From NCBI GenBank assembly GCA_965218795.1, contig OZ244653.1, positions 736,001-800,000 of the forward strand: a stretch of DNA of 64,000 bases, in the 5' to 3' direction. Below, piece after piece: positions 21,001 through 30,000 of this stretch. This DNA is from a bacterium. GTDB lineage: Bacteria > UBA8248 > JACPRG01 > G963555815. Made by a program: the position numbers. Each line of letters begins with the position of its first letter. Position 1 is the stretch's first letter.

Positions 21001-24000
21001 GGCGAAGTAAAGGAGCGCGAGCGTGGGTACGAGGGCCATCAAGAAACAGGAGAAGATCAGAAAAAAGCAGGTCAGGAGCGTGAAAAGACGCAGCTCCATT
21101 TGGTCGATCAACCGGCCGAGCCAGAACATGGACATCCCGCTGACCAGCGTCGCGACGGCGTAAATGGACCCGAACTCCCCATGACTCAGCCCGAACTCGC
21201 TGCGAATGTCCGCATTGAATACCGCAATGAAGTAGGTCTGCCCGAATCCCGAAAACCAGGTCATGAGCAGGCCGAAGAAAAGGAAGCGTCGATGTTCCTT
21301 CAGAAAGGCAATGTATTCCATTGCGGCGTTCCGCCTCCTTTTGGGGAGCCGAAGAAAGGATGCTCGGCGGTCGCCTACTGTCTCGACATGGTGACCAGCG
21401 CCGCGCCGGCGCAAATCAGGATGGCGCCGATGATCAGGGGCGCGTTCAGCCGCTCGGACTTCCGGAAGAAGATCCACGAGAAAAAAACGGCGAACAGCGG
21501 CGCGGAATAGACCAGAGGCGCCACGGTGGACAGGGGTCCAATCTGCAAGGCGGCGAAGAAGGCCAAGTGCCCCGAACTGGAAATGACGCCACTGGCGATG
21601 AGGAACTTGGCGTCGTACGAACCGATTCGAATCCGGTCATTCTCGGGCAGAAAGAAGTTCCAGACCACCGCGACCAACAACGCCCCCAGGGCGGCAATCG
21701 AGAGGCCCACGCTCAGGCTGGGTACCATCATGACGCCGATTTTCCGAAGAACGGCCGTCAGGGCGAACATGAAAACCGCAAGTCCCGCAAAAATGAATGA
21801 GTGCCATACCGATCTCCCGGAGGCTTGTCCCATTCCGCCCTTTTGGCGTTCCTGCGCCAGCAATATGACGCCCAGGACGATGAACAACGTTCCGATGAAC
21901 ACGAGGTAGGTCGGGCTCTCGCCGAAAAACACGATAGCGAAGATCACGGTCAGCAGGGGGGCGCATGAAATGATCGTGACCGACCGGGAAAGGCCGATTC
22001 TCCGAAAGCTCATATAGAGCAGGGTGCCCGCCAGACCGGGCGAGGCAATTCCGGCCGCGAGGAAGATCAGGAAGGCATACCATCCGATCTCCGACACCGG
22101 AAAGGTAGCGAGCGCGACCGGGCCGTAAATCAGCAGCGTCACGACGGACAAGGCGAGGATGCCCGTGATCGGCGTCGACGTGCGAAGGGCGAAATGGACC
22201 GCCGTGTCGCCGGCGGCGAAGGCAAACCCCGTCAGGAGAGCCAGCAGATTAGCCAGGATGAGCGGATTCATGTCCCTCTCGATTTCCCCCGGAAAACTGA
22301 ATCAGCCGTACCCAAGCCGGTTCTCACATTGGTCTCTCTGAAAGACGAGGCCGGAATGGTCTCGCGGCAACGACATCCCTTTTGTCCCGTCAAGTTCATC
22401 CCCGTCATGACCGATGAGAGAAATGAGTGACCGAGGATGAGATCAGCTCTCGATGCTCCCCAGGGGTGAGGCAGGTTGCCCGAAATCCGTGCCCTCTGAA
22501 CGAAGAAGATCCCGGAAGGGGAGAAAGATCGCAATTCTACTCCTGAAAAGACGAATTCGTCAGCCTTCGTTCCACTCGGATGGGAGGAGATATGAATTCC
22601 AAAGGAATCATTCAGACGATTTTTGTGACGGTGGTCCCGCTGGTGAGCGGATTGAGCGCTGCCGTCGCACAAGAACGGCTGATTTCGGGAATTCATGGGA
22701 ACGGGAAAAAGCGGTCCCCGCGGGGATCAGAGCATCCGGAACCGAAGCGCCCGGAAAGATGTCCAGGGGACGGAAAAAGGAGGAATTGGATACCGGCCAA
22801 TGGGCGGAGGTCATCCAGGCGGCGGAACGTCTACTTGGGATCTCCTCGCGCAGGGTCCTCGCCTCAAAGCCTTCGCAGGATCGAAGAACGGGCCCAAAGG
22901 TTGGTGTCGGCTGAGGCTTTTCACAGTCCACTTTTTCCCAGCACAGCTGCTGTCCAAAGAACTCCCACGCCATAACCATCCCGTCCTGCGGGCCCGCAAT
23001 TCATCATTCATCCGTTAGAAGGAACGATACCCCATCCGATAGCCGCGTCATTCGGCCGAGGAACAGGCTCCCCTTCGCCAGGAAGAAGGCGCGGCCGAGA
23101 CCATCATCCCTGAAACCGCGCAGTGCGTGAGGCAGCGCCGGAACCGCAGAGGCGATGTGGCCCTGGGAAGGCGCAAAGCCGGGGAGTCCATGCTTCTCCG
23201 CAAAGCGGGGAATCTCCGTCCGGTCGATTTCACCACGAAGGGCCGCCAGGGCCGCGATGTATTGATAATTCGTCCGAGGTACGTCTCCCGCTCCCGCCGG
23301 GACGGTGATCTCGGGGTTATGCAACTCTGTCGCAAACAGAGGGACTTCGGACAGCTTCAACCCAAGTCGGTCGAGTGGCTCCGCCACCAGGGATTCCAGA
23401 ATGGCCTGCTGGGTATGGCCGGCTCCGATCCGGTGAAGGCCCACATGGTCCAGCCGGATTTGCGGTCCCTCGCCATCGGCTGTCACCATGACGGAAAAGC
23501 CCGCCAGAACGTCCTCGAGGACCGGCATGTCTTTCTCGAGATGCGCGGCGGCCTTCATCCCCAGCTTGGGAAGCGAGCCGCCCCCGACGACCGCTACCCT
23601 GTCGAAAACTCCAGCGGCCACGAGACTCCCTGCCAGGACCATCGCGTTCAGCGGTCCGGCGCAGAAGTTCTTGACGTCCGTTCCGCTGGCGTATTGTAGT
23701 CCGGCCATTTCTCCAACGGCCTTGGCGAGGTTGCCGCCGCCCCGTTGGTACCGGTCACCGACCGCTTCTTCGGAGCAGCCGATCAGGAAATCCGGCGGGG
23801 GCGCATCGGAAAGGCCCGTTTGCCCGAGCAGTTGTTTCAGGGCCAGATAGGCCGTGGTCTTTGCCGCCAGGTTTTCCAGCAAGACGGACGCCGCGAGCGA
23901 TTCATCTTCTTCGTGATCTCCGCGAAAACTCCCCACGGCCTCGTCATTGTGGAACAGGGGAAGGGCGGCCGCCCGGTTCCCCCCGGATGCGGCACAGACG

Positions 24001-27000: not shown

Positions 27001-30000
27001 GGCCATTGAAGGAGGATAGCCGGGAAACCGCGAGCGTCTCCGAATCTTCGGGGGAATTCTCCCAGGCGGCCCCACCCAGGAAGACAGCAGCGCGCACGCC
27101 GGCCCGGACAGCGGCTTGTGCGAAATCACCCCGGCTGAGATCTTCAGCGGGTTGCAGAGTGAGCACGACGTTCTCGAGGTTGGAGAAGATGGATAGGCCA
27201 GCGCACGGCCCTTTCATGTCCAGGAGGGCATCTTCCGCTCCGTTCATTTGGCCGCACGTGATGACGCTCATCCCCTTCAGGACGTTTGTCGCGCCGCTGC
27301 CGCAAAGCCCGGGCGGCCCGAGGATGCCCGGAAAGGTCTCGGCGTCCCCGCCGGCCTTGATGCGGGGCTCCAGGATGTCGAGGATGTTGATGATGCGGCA
27401 GGAATCGCCCGGGTGAACGAGGTCTATCCGGACGGATCGAAAGCTGGGTTCCTCCCGGAGGATGAGATTGCACAGCTTATCGGTGTCGATGAGAAGCCTT
27501 CGGCCGTCCAGCCGGGTCTCATCGCCTCCCTCGATGGAATCGATCTGGAAATGGTTCAGCGTGAGCTCCACAACGGCTTCCCTCTTGCGGGGGGAGACTC
27601 TGGCGGGGGAGGATGGTGTCCAGCTTCCTCCCTCGGGAGTCAGCGTATTGAACTTGGGTTGGCGCAGTCAAGGGCGGAAGATAGATGAGGTGAATCGATG
27701 CGATTCGGCGTAGGACTTTGGGCGGACCGACCCATTGAGGAGATTGTGGACCTGTGCCGGCGCGCCGAGGCGCTCGGCTTTGATGACGTCTGGGTCAACG
27801 ACCACTTTTTCGTCAAGGACGTTTATGTCGTCCAGTCCCTCGCGGCCGAAAAAACCGAGACCATCCGGTTCGGGACGTCGGTGACGAGCCTGTTCCTTCG
27901 TCATCCCGCCCAACTGGCCTCTTCCGTGCGAACGCTCCACGAGGTCTCCGGCGGACGGGCCATTCTGGGGCTGAGCAGCGGCGGATTCGAATATCCGGAA
28001 AATCTGGGTACGCCCATACCCAAGCCCATGACCTCCTGCCGGGAAGCCATCGAGATCGTCCGGGGGCTCTGGACATATCAACCCACATCGGCCGGGGGAG
28101 GGGTCTTCCGGGTGGAAAACGCACGACTGGAATTCGGCGACCCCGTCTCCATTCCCATTTACCGGGGCGCACGGGGCCCGCGCATGCATCGGCTGGCCGG
28201 AGAGATGTGCGACGGAATTCTCATGCACGGACCGACTGTGGATCACTGCCGCTACGTCCATGAGCGGGCGGCGGAAGGGGCCGCGCGCTCCGGCCGGGAC
28301 GTCGAAGAAGTAGAAATCGGCGTGGTGACGGAAGTCGTCATCACGGAGGATCGGGAGGCCGCCGTCAACGATCTGAGGCCCCGTTGCCTGATCATGGCCG
28401 GGGGAGAGTATTCCTTGGAGGTCATGGACCATTACGGACTTCGGCGGGAAGATGTGGAGCCCCTTCGCGAGGCCGTCCGCCGGGGAGACAAGGAGACGGC
28501 CGTTTCCCTGGTGACGCCGGAAATGGTCAACGCATTCGTCATCGTGGGGGATGGGACGGATTGTCTGGAAAGGCTTCGCGCCCTGGAGTCTGCCGGCCTG
28601 TCCCTCATGGTGTCCTCATCGGGACTTCGGCGGTCCACCGATTATATCGTGCGTTCCATGGAAAACGTCGCCGAGCATCTGATGAGGCCGTATCGGGAGT
28701 GATCCTCCCGGTAACGGCCCGCCGGAATCAGGGAATCAGCCGGATTTGAAAGCGCATCACGCCACCGCCGCCAGCAGTTCCCTCCGGTTCTTCGCGTGAA
28801 TTCCCAGGCTCCGCAGGGTTCTTCCCCCGGCCCGGTAATCGACCCCGTTCATGGCCGAGGCCATAGCTATCAGGCCGTCGATCAATGGAACGTCAACGCC
28901 TGCGGCCCGTGCGATGGAGGAGATGCAGACGAGGGAATAGGGGACATCTTCGGTGATGTAGCGGGTCTGGAGCGCGTCCGGTCCGCACTGATACCGGCTG
29001 GCGGCCAGGGCGCTCGCCTGGATGGCCTCATGCGTCGTTCGGCGCTTCCTGTCGAGCATGCCCTGCTCGTAGAGCCAATGACGGTAGGGCGTACGGTCCT
29101 TGAAGCGGAGCGCGGCGCGGATGGCCAGGATTTCAGTGTCGACCGCCTCGATGCAACGGGCCACCGAAGGCGTCGCGCCCTCGCCCCAGAGGAGCATGTC
29201 CGTCGTTCGGCTTTCCAGACGACCGGCGTTGGAGAGGACTGTTGCGACATGATCGATGGCGTTGAAATTGATGAGGATGGTCTCCAGAACGTTCGTCGCG
29301 GTCCGAATGTTGGGATAGAGGGGCTGGATGGCGTCGAACAGCTCCTCGTTTCTCGACGCGGGGAGCGCGGCCAGGACCACGCCGCCCTTTTTCTTGACAC
29401 GCACCTGGACCGTTCCGGGTCCGGTTGCGCGGGCCGAATAGGGCAAGGTGTTCGTCTCTCCAATGAGCACACCCCTGGCCTGTTTCAGTACGCGCCGCGC
29501 GTGATGGAAAACCAGCGCGCCTCCTCCTTCGCCCATGAAGACCACGATTTGTTCCCGGTGGACGCGGGGAACAAATGCCCGGGCAAAGACCTCATGGCCG
29601 AAACAGGGGACGGCGATGATGACGATCTCCGCGTCCTTGACGGCCCGCCGCGGGTCACTCGTCGCGCCCGCCAGGCGAACAAACCTCGCCTCCGCGTCGC
29701 CCTCAATCAGGGTGATGCCGCCTTTTTCCCGGATGGGCTTCAGGTTCGCCTTGAAGCGGGGTGTCTCATAGATTGTCACCCGGTGGCTCATCCGGGAGAG
29801 GTCGGCGGCGATCGACATCCCCCCCGCGCCGGCTCCCAGGACGCTGATGTTGCGGCTCATGGATCCACCTCCCGTCCCGATGCCCGGACCGGATGGATTG
29901 GCTGGCGGTCTTTGCCCGGCGTCCGGGTCAAACCGATTCAGGAACCGCGTTGGATTCGATATCCGCCCGCGTGGACGCTGGCACCTTCTCGACCTGCACC

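Follow-up and report, generated by a model that had tools for sequence, protein, structure and literature searches.

A widespread subtype of the glycine-reductase-type (Grd) selenoenzyme system that lacks GrdD and probably has GrdC alone as component C

Background

The glycine reductase complex consists of proteins A, B (GrdB/GrdE) and C (GrdC/GrdD). According to the textbook scheme, GrdD, a PlsX-like protein, converts the acetyl group to acetyl phosphate, from which acetate kinase forms ATP; published work has reportedly assigned the acetyl thioester to Cys359 of GrdD, not to GrdC. The glycine reductase of Peptostreptococcales is represented here by Acetoanaerobium noterae (locus L138). The betaine reductase GrdH/GrdI of Enterococcus gilvus pCR1A (L137) has the same GrdA and GrdC partners, and its operon carries grdD, trxB and a thioredoxin gene. 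GrdC and GrdD also occur as fusions of about 850 aa (P0247, P0249, P0251, P0253), which combine a full GrdD domain with a GrdC portion that is likewise a member of the NF040746 family (629-773 bits). The operon described below possesses the A and B components and GrdC, and is devoid of GrdD, a form of which we found no description in the literature searched.

Results and discussion

Gene content and limits of the operon

The window (the whole 64,000-nucleotide stretch of DNA that was analysed) belongs to a genome assembled as a single contig of 5.17 Mb, 98.9% complete and with 6.4% estimated contamination. The family scores and coordinates bear out the four grd genes that a preliminary description had placed on the minus strand, where they form a single operon in the order grdE-like, grdB-like, grdA, grdC:

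22272-23003, no strand: 730-bp gap that separates grdC from an EamA transporter gene and contains ORFs of 142 and 123 aa
23004-24392, minus strand: grdC of the GrdD-less subtype, 462 aa (NF040746, 529.7 bits; above the cut-off of 450)
24402-24866, minus strand: grdA, selenoprotein A, 154 aa, in-frame TGA at 24741-24743 (NF040748, 185.5 bits, above the cut-off of 130; PF04723, 184 bits)
24972-26276, minus strand: grdB-like selenoprotein B, 434 aa, in-frame TGA at 25227-25229 (TIGR01918, 463.6 bits against a cut-off of 65)
26300-27571, minus strand: grdE-like alpha subunit (proprotein) of component B, 423 aa (PF09338, 373 bits)
27698-28702, plus strand: F420-type luciferase-like oxidoreductase, Mer-like (PF00296, 218 bits; NF002619, 230 bits, under the cut-off of 276)

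The divergently transcribed Mer-like gene sets the upstream end of the operon, and the 730-bp gap delimits the other side. A 254-aa minus-strand ORF over 27698-28702 was rejected as a true gene, with 0 of 5 strain differences at third codon positions versus 3 of 5 for the plus-strand frame. Neither strand of the gap gives a Pfam or NCBIfam match, no Rfam family attains its gathering score there, and strain-to-strain variation is higher in the gap than in the genes, with 7 of all 23 differences and one indel (22989) located there. It is probably non-coding, and its two ORFs, for which the preliminary description had likewise reported no family match, are probably not real genes.

The operon is contained in full in each of two independent contigs, and both TGA codons are unchanged in contigs of four runs from four studies. 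The frames of the grd genes are intact, all three indels found in the strain comparison are intergenic, and of the 11 differences within grd coding sequence, 8 are at third codon positions. The genome encodes the selenocysteine machinery (tRNA-Sec, selA, selB and selD). The operon itself contains neither trxB nor trxA, and the genome has no acetate kinase, in which respects it differs from the glycine reductase system.

Components A and B

The GrdA, GrdB and GrdC proteins of the window show 40-43% identity to their counterparts from A. noterae, and the alpha subunit 34%. In GrdA the selenocysteine lies in C-F-V-U, i.e. the C-x-x-U redox motif is present, and in selenoprotein B it is residue 350 in U-G-T-C-T-R-C, corresponding to the motif U-x-x-C-x-x-C; both arrangements are shared with the A. 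noterae enzyme. The TGA of grdA is spanned by a hairpin (-28 kcal/mol, z -2.1), while the one that follows the TGA of grdB does not stand out from shuffled sequences (z 0.02). In an alignment with A. noterae GrdE and E. gilvus GrdI the alpha subunit retains Cys at the predicted pyruvoyl-forming cleavage position (..WSGF-C-RPTKNTTY..). This Cys is in the register of GrdE, which reads ..SGN-C-VSACDKNPTY.. in A. noterae, while E. gilvus GrdI has another sequence at the site.

The curated substrate models leave component B unassigned, in agreement with the preliminary description, in which none of the three models (glycine, sarcosine, betaine) had reached its cut-off. Selenoprotein B scores 427 bits on the glycine model (TIGR01917, cut-off 602), 476 on sarcosine GrdF (NF040794, cut-off 800) and 407 on betaine GrdH (NF040795, cut-off 775). 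The alpha subunit has sarcosine GrdG as its best NCBIfam match (NF040793, 281 bits, cut-off 780), so that sarcosine reductase provides the best curated models for both B subunits, each far under its cut-off. The substrate-site motifs of selenoprotein B, AHHGGYST and TFSGCSTYY, differ from those of A. noterae (TAHGGYDP and TTVGNGTSV) and of E. gilvus GrdH (IHAGFDP and ATVGTGTTQ; 39% identity). The methods of PMC9751293 give AHGGxD[QTAP] and TxGNxTxV for glycine selenoprotein B, and IHGGYDR and TTGTGT for GrdF; neither of these two sets is found in the protein from the window. A second alpha/selenoprotein B pair elsewhere in the genome (TIGR01918, 501.8 bits) also matches none of the curated substrate models; as described previously, a DUF1989 gene precedes it on the upstream side, and downstream there is a gene for an XDH large subunit.

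Absence of GrdD

The claim that this Grd-type cluster has GrdA and GrdC and no GrdD stands. The profile search of the host genome with the GrdD model NF040747 gave at most 27.3 bits (cut-off 350), and the protein matched is the housekeeping PlsX (TIGR00182, 382 bits, cut-off 243), as the preliminary description had suspected when it placed the weak GrdD matches in PlsX-like genes. A tblastn search of the genome with canonical GrdD reached a best E-value of 1.5. Across the class none of 51 genomes exceeds the NF040747 cut-off (best 35.4 bits), and in 49 of them the weak match is PlsX. GrdD is itself a relative of PlsX, with PF02504 in every GrdD protein listed.

The earlier worry that a very divergent GrdD had been overlooked is largely answered. 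As a positive control, NF040747 found both of two known records (552 and 581 bits, each adjoining grdC), and even the most divergent of the fused GrdD domains score within 378-537 bits. A tblastn search with two GrdD proteins against 122 sequences matched solely the nine known GrdD loci. When the surroundings of grdC were compared across 85 loci, the four grd genes were the sole recurring ones, and no other family occurred in more than 12 loci. Finally, GrdD-less GrdC proteins are without the C-terminal helix that is typical of GrdD-linked ones; GrdC of the window has no counterpart of the 38-aa tail that carries this helix in A. noterae GrdC.

GrdC subtype markers and predicted fold

We define the GrdD-less GrdC subtype by a short tail after DGxSF, the signatures GD-R-Y-x-RGGG and KLGM-K, and a genome without GrdD. 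GrdC of the window has 7 residues after DGxSF, R214-Y215 and K280, and thus belongs to this subtype. The tail measures 37-43 aa in 9/9 GrdD-linked GrdC proteins, where the predicted structure shows it as a tethered helix (residues 508-528), 4-18 aa in 76 GrdD-less ones and 5-19 aa in 14 of 15 further ones. R214 and Y215 are invariant across 65 GrdD-less GrdC proteins, and K280 is found in 64/64, versus N in 9/9 GrdD-linked proteins; the canonical A. noterae protein has MN/N in place of RY/K. The GrdC-GrdD fusions share with GrdC of the window the lack of a free C-terminal helix, and differ from it in the GrdD domain and in having MN or AF together with N. In a tree calculated without the tail columns the nine GrdD-linked proteins form one branch (SH-aLRT 100).

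The AlphaFold model of GrdC (pLDDT 90.8) indicates a member of the thiolase superfamily with a KAS III-like fold. Among solved structures the nearest folds found by Foldseek are those of OleA, FabH and thiolases (E-values from 2e-10 to 2e-8, per-target TM about 0.5); sequence identity to them is only 12-17%, and GrdC has an additional N-terminal region of about 190 aa and a DUF5940 C-terminal half. Another difference concerns the acyl donor, a selenoprotein for GrdC as opposed to CoA or ACP for KAS III, OleA and thiolases. The invariant Cys244 aligns with the KAS III nucleophile in the FabH profile alignment and is the putative nucleophile of GrdC. The KAS III-like Cys is also present in A. 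noterae GrdC and is conserved in the GrdD-linked proteins, hence alone it does not explain how GrdC could work without GrdD. The subtype-specific basic residues K26, R214 and K280 could bind inorganic phosphate just as well as CoA.

Distribution of the GrdD-less form

GrdC is encoded in 36 of the 51 class genomes, with scores above the cut-off in 34. The preliminary description called the cluster conserved across the class; this scope was too narrow, because the GrdD-less GrdC subtype spans at least eight phylum-level groups. Moreover, the GrdC genes of the class are scattered over several separate regions of the GrdC tree, so that the apparent conservation is partly repeated acquisition. The GrdD-less form was found in 50/50 genomes tested from many phyla, and it outnumbers the GrdD-linked form in both phylum samples: among 401 Thermodesulfobacteriota genomes 22 have GrdC and 6 have GrdD (16 of the 22 GrdD-less), and among 251 Chloroflexota genomes 12 have GrdC and none has GrdD (12 of 12 GrdD-less), counts that come mostly from metagenome-assembled and in some cases incomplete genomes and are not independent where genomes are related. 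The same architecture is seen in several one-contig genomes of the class. In well-flanked loci grdA adjoins grdC in 45 of 46, and the B components lie apart from grdC-grdA in 9 of 46; the gene order reported for the genome G007 is indeed C-A-E-B (L048). The cluster of the window is one representative of this distinct and widespread GrdD-less subtype, whose component C probably consists of nothing but GrdC.

Handling of the acetyl group

Among the parts of the textbook complex, GrdA, the B pair and GrdC are present in the window, and GrdD and the link to acetate kinase are missing. Neither ackA nor pta nor pduL was detected in the host genome at E <= 1e-5; it encodes AcsA and COX1. In the class ackA occurs in 1 of 51 genomes. 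All six GrdD-positive genomes have ackA, adjoining grdD in two of them, as do 24 of 63 GrdD-less genomes, in which an acetyl phosphate route is therefore possible.

On balance we favour the view that the operon encodes a working, non-phosphorylating Grd variant in which GrdC alone frees the C2 unit as acetyl-CoA or acetate. Component B, with its pyruvoyl-type alpha subunit and selenoprotein B, would take an amine substrate that bears a carboxymethyl group and is not glycine, sarcosine or betaine, and would split the C-N bond, so that the carboxymethyl group ends up on the GrdA selenocysteine. The thiolase-fold GrdC may then hold the C2 unit as an acetyl thioester at Cys244, from which the acetyl group would leave as acetyl-CoA, our first choice, or as acetate. 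The candidate products are acetyl-CoA, acetate and acetyl phosphate, and as judged from gene content the first two are the most likely, since the host has neither GrdD nor acetate kinase and its GrdC has no docking helix. This form of the enzyme probably yields no ATP by the textbook route. On this reading its role would be the breakdown and assimilation of a nitrogen compound in an organism able to respire with oxygen, and not substrate-level phosphorylation.

Alternative explanations

Acetyl phosphate might remain the product, made either by GrdC through phosphorolysis at a phosphate site formed by R214/Y215/K280 or by PlsX acting in trans for GrdD. The kinship of GrdD and PlsX, the occurrence of PlsX in the host and, as the source of the weak GrdD score, in 49 of the 51 class genomes, the basic signature residues standing where M/N and N were, and the ackA genes of some GrdD-less genomes speak for this. 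We nevertheless regard it as rather unlikely, as acetyl phosphate would have no known consumer in a host without ackA, pta and pduL, whose class has ackA in only 1 of 51 genomes, as the GrdD-less proteins lack the tethered helix present in each GrdC that has a separate GrdD, and as none of 96 GrdD-less loci has a PlsX-like gene near grdC. GrdD could also have been replaced by an unrelated protein whose gene lies at another site in the genome: a non-homologous stand-in is invisible to homology searches, and the distant B components of some loci illustrate that parts of the system can lie apart. In every one of the 85 loci, drawn from many phyla, the gene for such a stand-in would need to lie away from grdC, while GrdA has stayed beside grdC almost without exception, which makes the idea improbable.

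We give about as little credence to a module that yields no C2 acyl unit, with diverse B components reducing other substrates and GrdA and GrdC serving a different chemistry. The many different substrate-site motifs in B subunits next to GrdD-less GrdC are in line with it, as are the two B pairs of this genome, neither of which fits a curated model. However, GrdA and GrdC exceed their equivalog cut-offs, and a full glycine-type motif is found in several GrdD-less loci (L059-L061, L064, L090, L156-L158), among them that of a cultured Desulforhabdus, so that part of the subtype at least looks like a true glycine reductase. It is hardly credible that we are dealing with a degenerating relic, or that GrdD is absent merely through an artefact of assembly or binning: the estimated contamination and the mostly metagenome-assembled origin of the compared genomes would allow for it, but the host is a nearly complete single contig, the operon is covered entirely by two independent contigs, its frames and Sec motifs are kept with strain differences mostly at third codon positions, and one-contig genomes of the class repeat the architecture.

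Conclusions

Beyond this locus we tentatively propose, as possible rather than probable, that RY/K GrdC proteins without GrdD or a docking helix constitute a non-phosphorylating branch of Grd enzymes that passes the C2 unit directly to CoA and serves many B components for other substrates, with the ATP-yielding clostridial enzyme that contains GrdD being one specialised offshoot. If this is true, bacteria without acetate kinase, including the owner of this oxidase-encoding genome, would use reductive C-N cleavage for assimilation.

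Organization and conservation of the grd operon

A four-gene cluster of the Grd type without GrdD was reported for the window in the preliminary description; the observation is right, and its family scores for GrdA, GrdC and selenoprotein B were reproduced with the values listed here.

Features of the grd region (window coordinates unless stated otherwise)
26300-27571, minus strand: component-B alpha subunit (grdE-like), 423 aa; PF09338, 373 bits; GrdG, 281 bits vs a cut-off of 780
24972-26276, minus strand: selenoprotein B (grdB-like), 434 aa; TGA at 25227-25229; TIGR01918, 463.6 bits
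24402-24866, minus strand: GrdA, 154 aa; TGA at 24741-24743; 185.5 bits vs a cut-off of 130
23004-24392, minus strand: GrdC, 462 aa; 529.7 bits vs a cut-off of 450
27698-28702, plus strand: F420-type luciferase-like oxidoreductase (LLM), divergent from the grd operon, upstream of the alpha subunit
28757-32030, minus strand: Octopine_DH-family dehydrogenase gene and molybdopterin (DMSO-reductase-family) oxidoreductase gene, upstream of the grd operon
32179-32250 and 32528-32598, minus strand: two tRNA genes, directly downstream of the glutamate-tRNA ligase gene (32678-34099)
4195754-4198373 of the contig (7847-16790 of locus L142): second alpha/selenoprotein-B pair

The four grd genes are tightly spaced on the minus strand of the window, and the operon comprises exactly these genes, because a divergent gene lies upstream and grdC is followed by 730 bp without a family match on either strand; an EamA gene and then an MFS transporter gene are found beyond this gap. 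The product of the divergent gene is closest to methylene-tetrahydromethanopterin reductase models, with a score under their cut-off. A 254-aa minus-strand ORF considered as the upstream gene was dropped in favor of this plus-strand LLM gene. Luciferase-like genes were also seen near grd clusters in a few further loci (L047 and the L073 group). At gathering scores, Rfam families matched the window only at two tRNAs, with neither a riboswitch nor a SECIS family among them. Promoter and terminator consensus motifs were no more numerous than in shuffled sequence, and the hairpin that follows the grdB TGA does not surpass shuffled sequence.

With TGA read as selenocysteine, GrdA contains C-F-V-U and selenoprotein B contains U-G-T-C-T-R-C, and the genome encodes tRNA-Sec, selB, selA and selD. 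The selD gene (contig positions 5147448-5148413, minus strand) itself has an in-frame TGA, which makes selenophosphate synthetase another probable selenoprotein of this genome. The grd stretch is present in contigs of four public runs from four studies, two of which contigs cover 22000-28600 unbroken. Both TGA codons are identical across the contigs of all four runs, the three indels of the strain contigs (22989, 24942 and 27618) are all intergenic, and 8 of the 11 single-base differences within the four genes fall at third codon positions, which together make a pattern of purifying selection. The 730-bp gap holds 7 differences between strains, which speaks against the 142-aa and 123-aa ORFs described earlier beside GrdC being genes.

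Absence of GrdD

GrdD was searched for with the NF040747 model (cut-off 350 bits) in the genome of the window, a single contig with an estimated completeness of 98.9%. The only match scored 27.3 bits, and the ORF in question is the housekeeping PlsX (TIGR00182, 382 vs 243 bits), while a tblastn search of the genome with canonical GrdD gave a best E-value of 1.5. As a positive control, the model found GrdD directly after grdC in two textbook-operon records (552 and 581 bits), and the GrdD domains of GrdC fusions, the most divergent of all, still score 378-537 bits. GrdD is truly missing from this genome. Among 51 genomes of the class, GrdC occurs in 36 and none exceeds the NF040747 cut-off (best score 35.4 bits).

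Calling and clustering of ORFs across 85 loci returned GrdC, GrdB, GrdA (with an ORF antisense to it) and the alpha subunit as the only recurrent families, followed in frequency by families for an ABC ATPase, an SDR and an IclR regulator, none of which is found in more than 12 of the 85 loci. Where at least 5 kb of sequence was available on both sides of grdC (46 loci), all four genes lie within 8 kb in 36 cases and grdA adjoins grdC in 45. The flanks of the cluster vary between the genomes of the class.

Distribution of GrdD-less loci

The arrangement had been described as conserved across the class; the absence of GrdD from the class stands, but the limitation to the class does not, as the spread is much wider. 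A scan of species genomes with the GrdC alignment retrieved 80 loci, assigned by title to Chloroflexota, Actinomycetota, Thermodesulfobacteriota, Methylomirabilota, Binatia, Armatimonadota, Acetothermia, Tectomicrobia and others. Whole-genome searches covering 50 of these loci revealed no genome with GrdD at E <= 1e-10, and tblastn with two GrdD proteins produced no match in the flanks of the 80 loci, of 16 class loci or of the window. An evenly drawn sample of 401 genomes from the phylum of one of the 80 loci, Thermodesulfobacteriota by title, contains GrdC in 22 and GrdD in 6; in all six, grdD directly adjoins grdC, which leaves 16 of the 22 carriers GrdD-less. A sample of 251 Chloroflexota genomes contains GrdC in 12 (one of them, G537, an unpublished genome) and GrdD in none. 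The window thus contains a representative of a GrdC subtype that is widespread, and in which GrdD has been lost or was never present.

Sequence and structure of the GrdC subtypes

The C-terminal tail differs between the forms. In 9/9 GrdC proteins with a separate GrdD (three from plasmid-borne operons and six from Thermodesulfobacteriota) the DGxSF motif is followed by 37-43 residues, compared with 4-18 residues in 76 GrdD-less sequences and 5-19 in 14 of 15 further ones; the exception, locus L164, ends in a low-complexity stretch of 61 aa that lacks the motif. An AlphaFold prediction for one GrdD-linked GrdC (mean pLDDT 89.6) folds this tail into a helix (residues 508-528) on a low-confidence linker. 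Single-chain GrdC-GrdD proteins of about 850 aa also occur naturally (cluster representatives P0247, P0249, P0251 and P0253); they are devoid of the C-terminal helix, and a linker leads directly into the GrdD domain. GrdC thus occurs in three architectures, namely as a protein separate from GrdD, fused to it, or stand-alone, and a helix needed only by the separate proteins would fit a docking element for GrdD.

The GrdD-less proteins further exhibit a signature of two sites, GD-R-Y-x-RGGG and KLGM-K. In the GrdD-linked and fused proteins the first site reads M/V/A followed by N/L/F, and the second reads N. Without exception, R214 and Y215 occur in a set of 65 GrdD-less sequences, and K280 is found in 64/64, as against N in 9/9 GrdD-linked ones. 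The short tail, RY and K occur together in 109 of 123 close homologues, the rest being fragments or missed by the search pattern. Among cluster representatives with both sites readable, RY and K are present in 7/7 short-tail proteins and neither is present in 5/5 long-tail or fused ones; the partly readable rows of P0268, P0293 and P0391 do not fit. In a tree of 73 GrdC sequences calculated without the tail columns (fragments, L164, a further locus L169 and loci with unsearched genomes were left out), a branch (SH-aLRT 100) separates the 9 GrdD-linked proteins from the 64 GrdD-less ones. The tree is unrooted, as there is no close outgroup, and hence gives no order of origin for the two forms. 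GrdC genes of the class are scattered over three or more parts of the tree, adjacent to Chloroflexota and other phyla, which points to horizontal transfer. Judged from the signature and the tail, the GrdD-less GrdC is a recognizable subtype.

The loop GD-x-x-x-RGGG has a pLDDT below 50 in the GrdD-linked protein (residues 243-250) and of about 75 in the stand-alone one (residues 211-220; AlphaFold models m240c0c8d426f and mdf53fcb4dfce), and may become ordered only on GrdD binding.

Acetyl handling and predicted product

The GrdC of the window (AlphaFold pLDDT 90.8) has a fold similar to those of OleA, FabH and thiolases, and a profile search of solved structures aligned its invariant Cys244 to the nucleophilic Cys of KAS III; an equivalent of Cys244 is also found in GrdD-linked GrdC. 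GrdD is held to convert the enzyme-bound acetyl group to acetyl phosphate, a step that is the entire reason why glycine reduction yields ATP. Neither ackA nor pta nor pduL was found in the genome at E <= 1e-5, and acetyl phosphate would have no known consumer there; the genome encodes an AMP-forming acetyl-CoA synthetase (AcsA, 1015 bits) and a haem-copper oxidase subunit I (510 bits). In the class, ackA occurs in 1 of 51 genomes. Of 69 GrdC carriers from elsewhere, all 6 with GrdD and 24 of the 63 without have the gene, a contrast that is a trend rather than a test, as related genomes are non-independent and some are incomplete. In two Thermodesulfobacteriota, G145 (contig C4, 235477-236670) and G340 (contig C132, 13625-14812), ackA lies about 1 kb from grdD. 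The trend runs in the direction expected if GrdD pairs with acetate kinase and stand-alone GrdC acts outside that route.

By analogy, from the shared parts and the biochemical background, the steps leading to carboxymethyl-GrdA would be those of the textbook enzyme, after which the C2 unit would pass to GrdC, with a thioester on Cys244 as the most plausible form. Release as acetyl-CoA would be our preferred outcome, because GrdD, the putative docking helix and acetate kinase are all missing and relatives of the fold exchange acyl groups with CoA. On the same grounds we rank next a hydrolysis to acetate, which AcsA could re-activate, and last a phosphorolysis, by GrdC itself or together with PlsX. 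Candidates for the acceptor-binding site are the Arg, Tyr and Lys that mark the subtype.

B components and substrate

The alpha subunit of the window has a Cys at the position of the cleavage-site Cys of GrdE from Acetoanaerobium noterae, which we take to give rise to a putative pyruvoyl group, whereas the betaine-type GrdI differs at this position. Selenoprotein B scores under the cut-offs of all three substrate models (glycine 427/602, sarcosine 476/800, betaine 407/775 bits). With the glycine and sarcosine motifs from the methods of PMC9751293 as reference, its motifs are AHHGGYST and TFSGCSTYY, as against (T/S)AHGGYD(P/N) and xTVGNGTxV in glycine-type proteins and IHAGFDP and ATVGTGTTQ in GrdH. 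The same pattern recurs in the second B pair of the genome (GNHGGYST/TTAGCSTYY) and in a pair from a family relative (FHHGGFST/SFAGCSTYY); by their motifs, pairs of this type form a separate subfamily. The B motifs beside GrdD-less GrdC are very diverse, and some loci, including one from a cultured Desulforhabdus strain, exhibit the full glycine-type motif, which indicates that the GrdD-less form is not bound to one substrate.

The second B pair is flanked by a DUF1989 gene, a relative of those for urea-amidolyase-associated proteins, on one side and by XDH large-subunit and Amidohydro_2 genes on the other. Neither grdA nor grdC accompanies the pair, which presumably works with the GrdA and GrdC of the window. 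The Octopine_DH-like and molybdopterin genes were set aside as substrate hints, since the divergent gene lies between them and the operon and relatives do not have them next to the cluster; an opine-type (N-carboxymethyl) substrate is no more than an idea. Elsewhere in the genome, a small selenoprotein resembling the C-terminus of PrdB/GrdB, with P-V-U-P-I-C (about 2445700-2446590, plus strand; about 9700-10592 of locus L143), adjoins XDH-type genes (2Fe-2S, MoCoBD and FAD subunits); a paralogous stretch with several TGA codons directly upstream of it may be degenerate.

Implications

The GrdD-less Grd system is a variant form, more general than was held in the preliminary description, for which product and substrate are only proposed here. 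In the titles and passages of the literature searched no Grd system without GrdD is described, and the operons in the published passages found include grdD. In PMC9751293, the Grd systems of Dehalococcoidia and others are taken as ATP-yielding via acetyl phosphate; neither GrdC nor GrdD is named in the main text of that paper, and its supplementary gene tables might bear on the GrdD-less form. If many environmental genomes with GrdC lack GrdD, and most of them also acetate kinase, genome-based claims of one ATP per glycine are not transferable to them, which matters for how the reductive glycine pathway and glycine-dependent lithotrophy are modeled. Under the same condition GrdC must complete the reaction in another way, and the unsettled division of labor between GrdC and GrdD becomes directly testable. 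Tail length, RY vs MN and K vs N sort GrdC into GrdD-linked, fused and stand-alone forms, and the many unassigned B motifs beside the stand-alone form point to undescribed substrates of this enzyme family.
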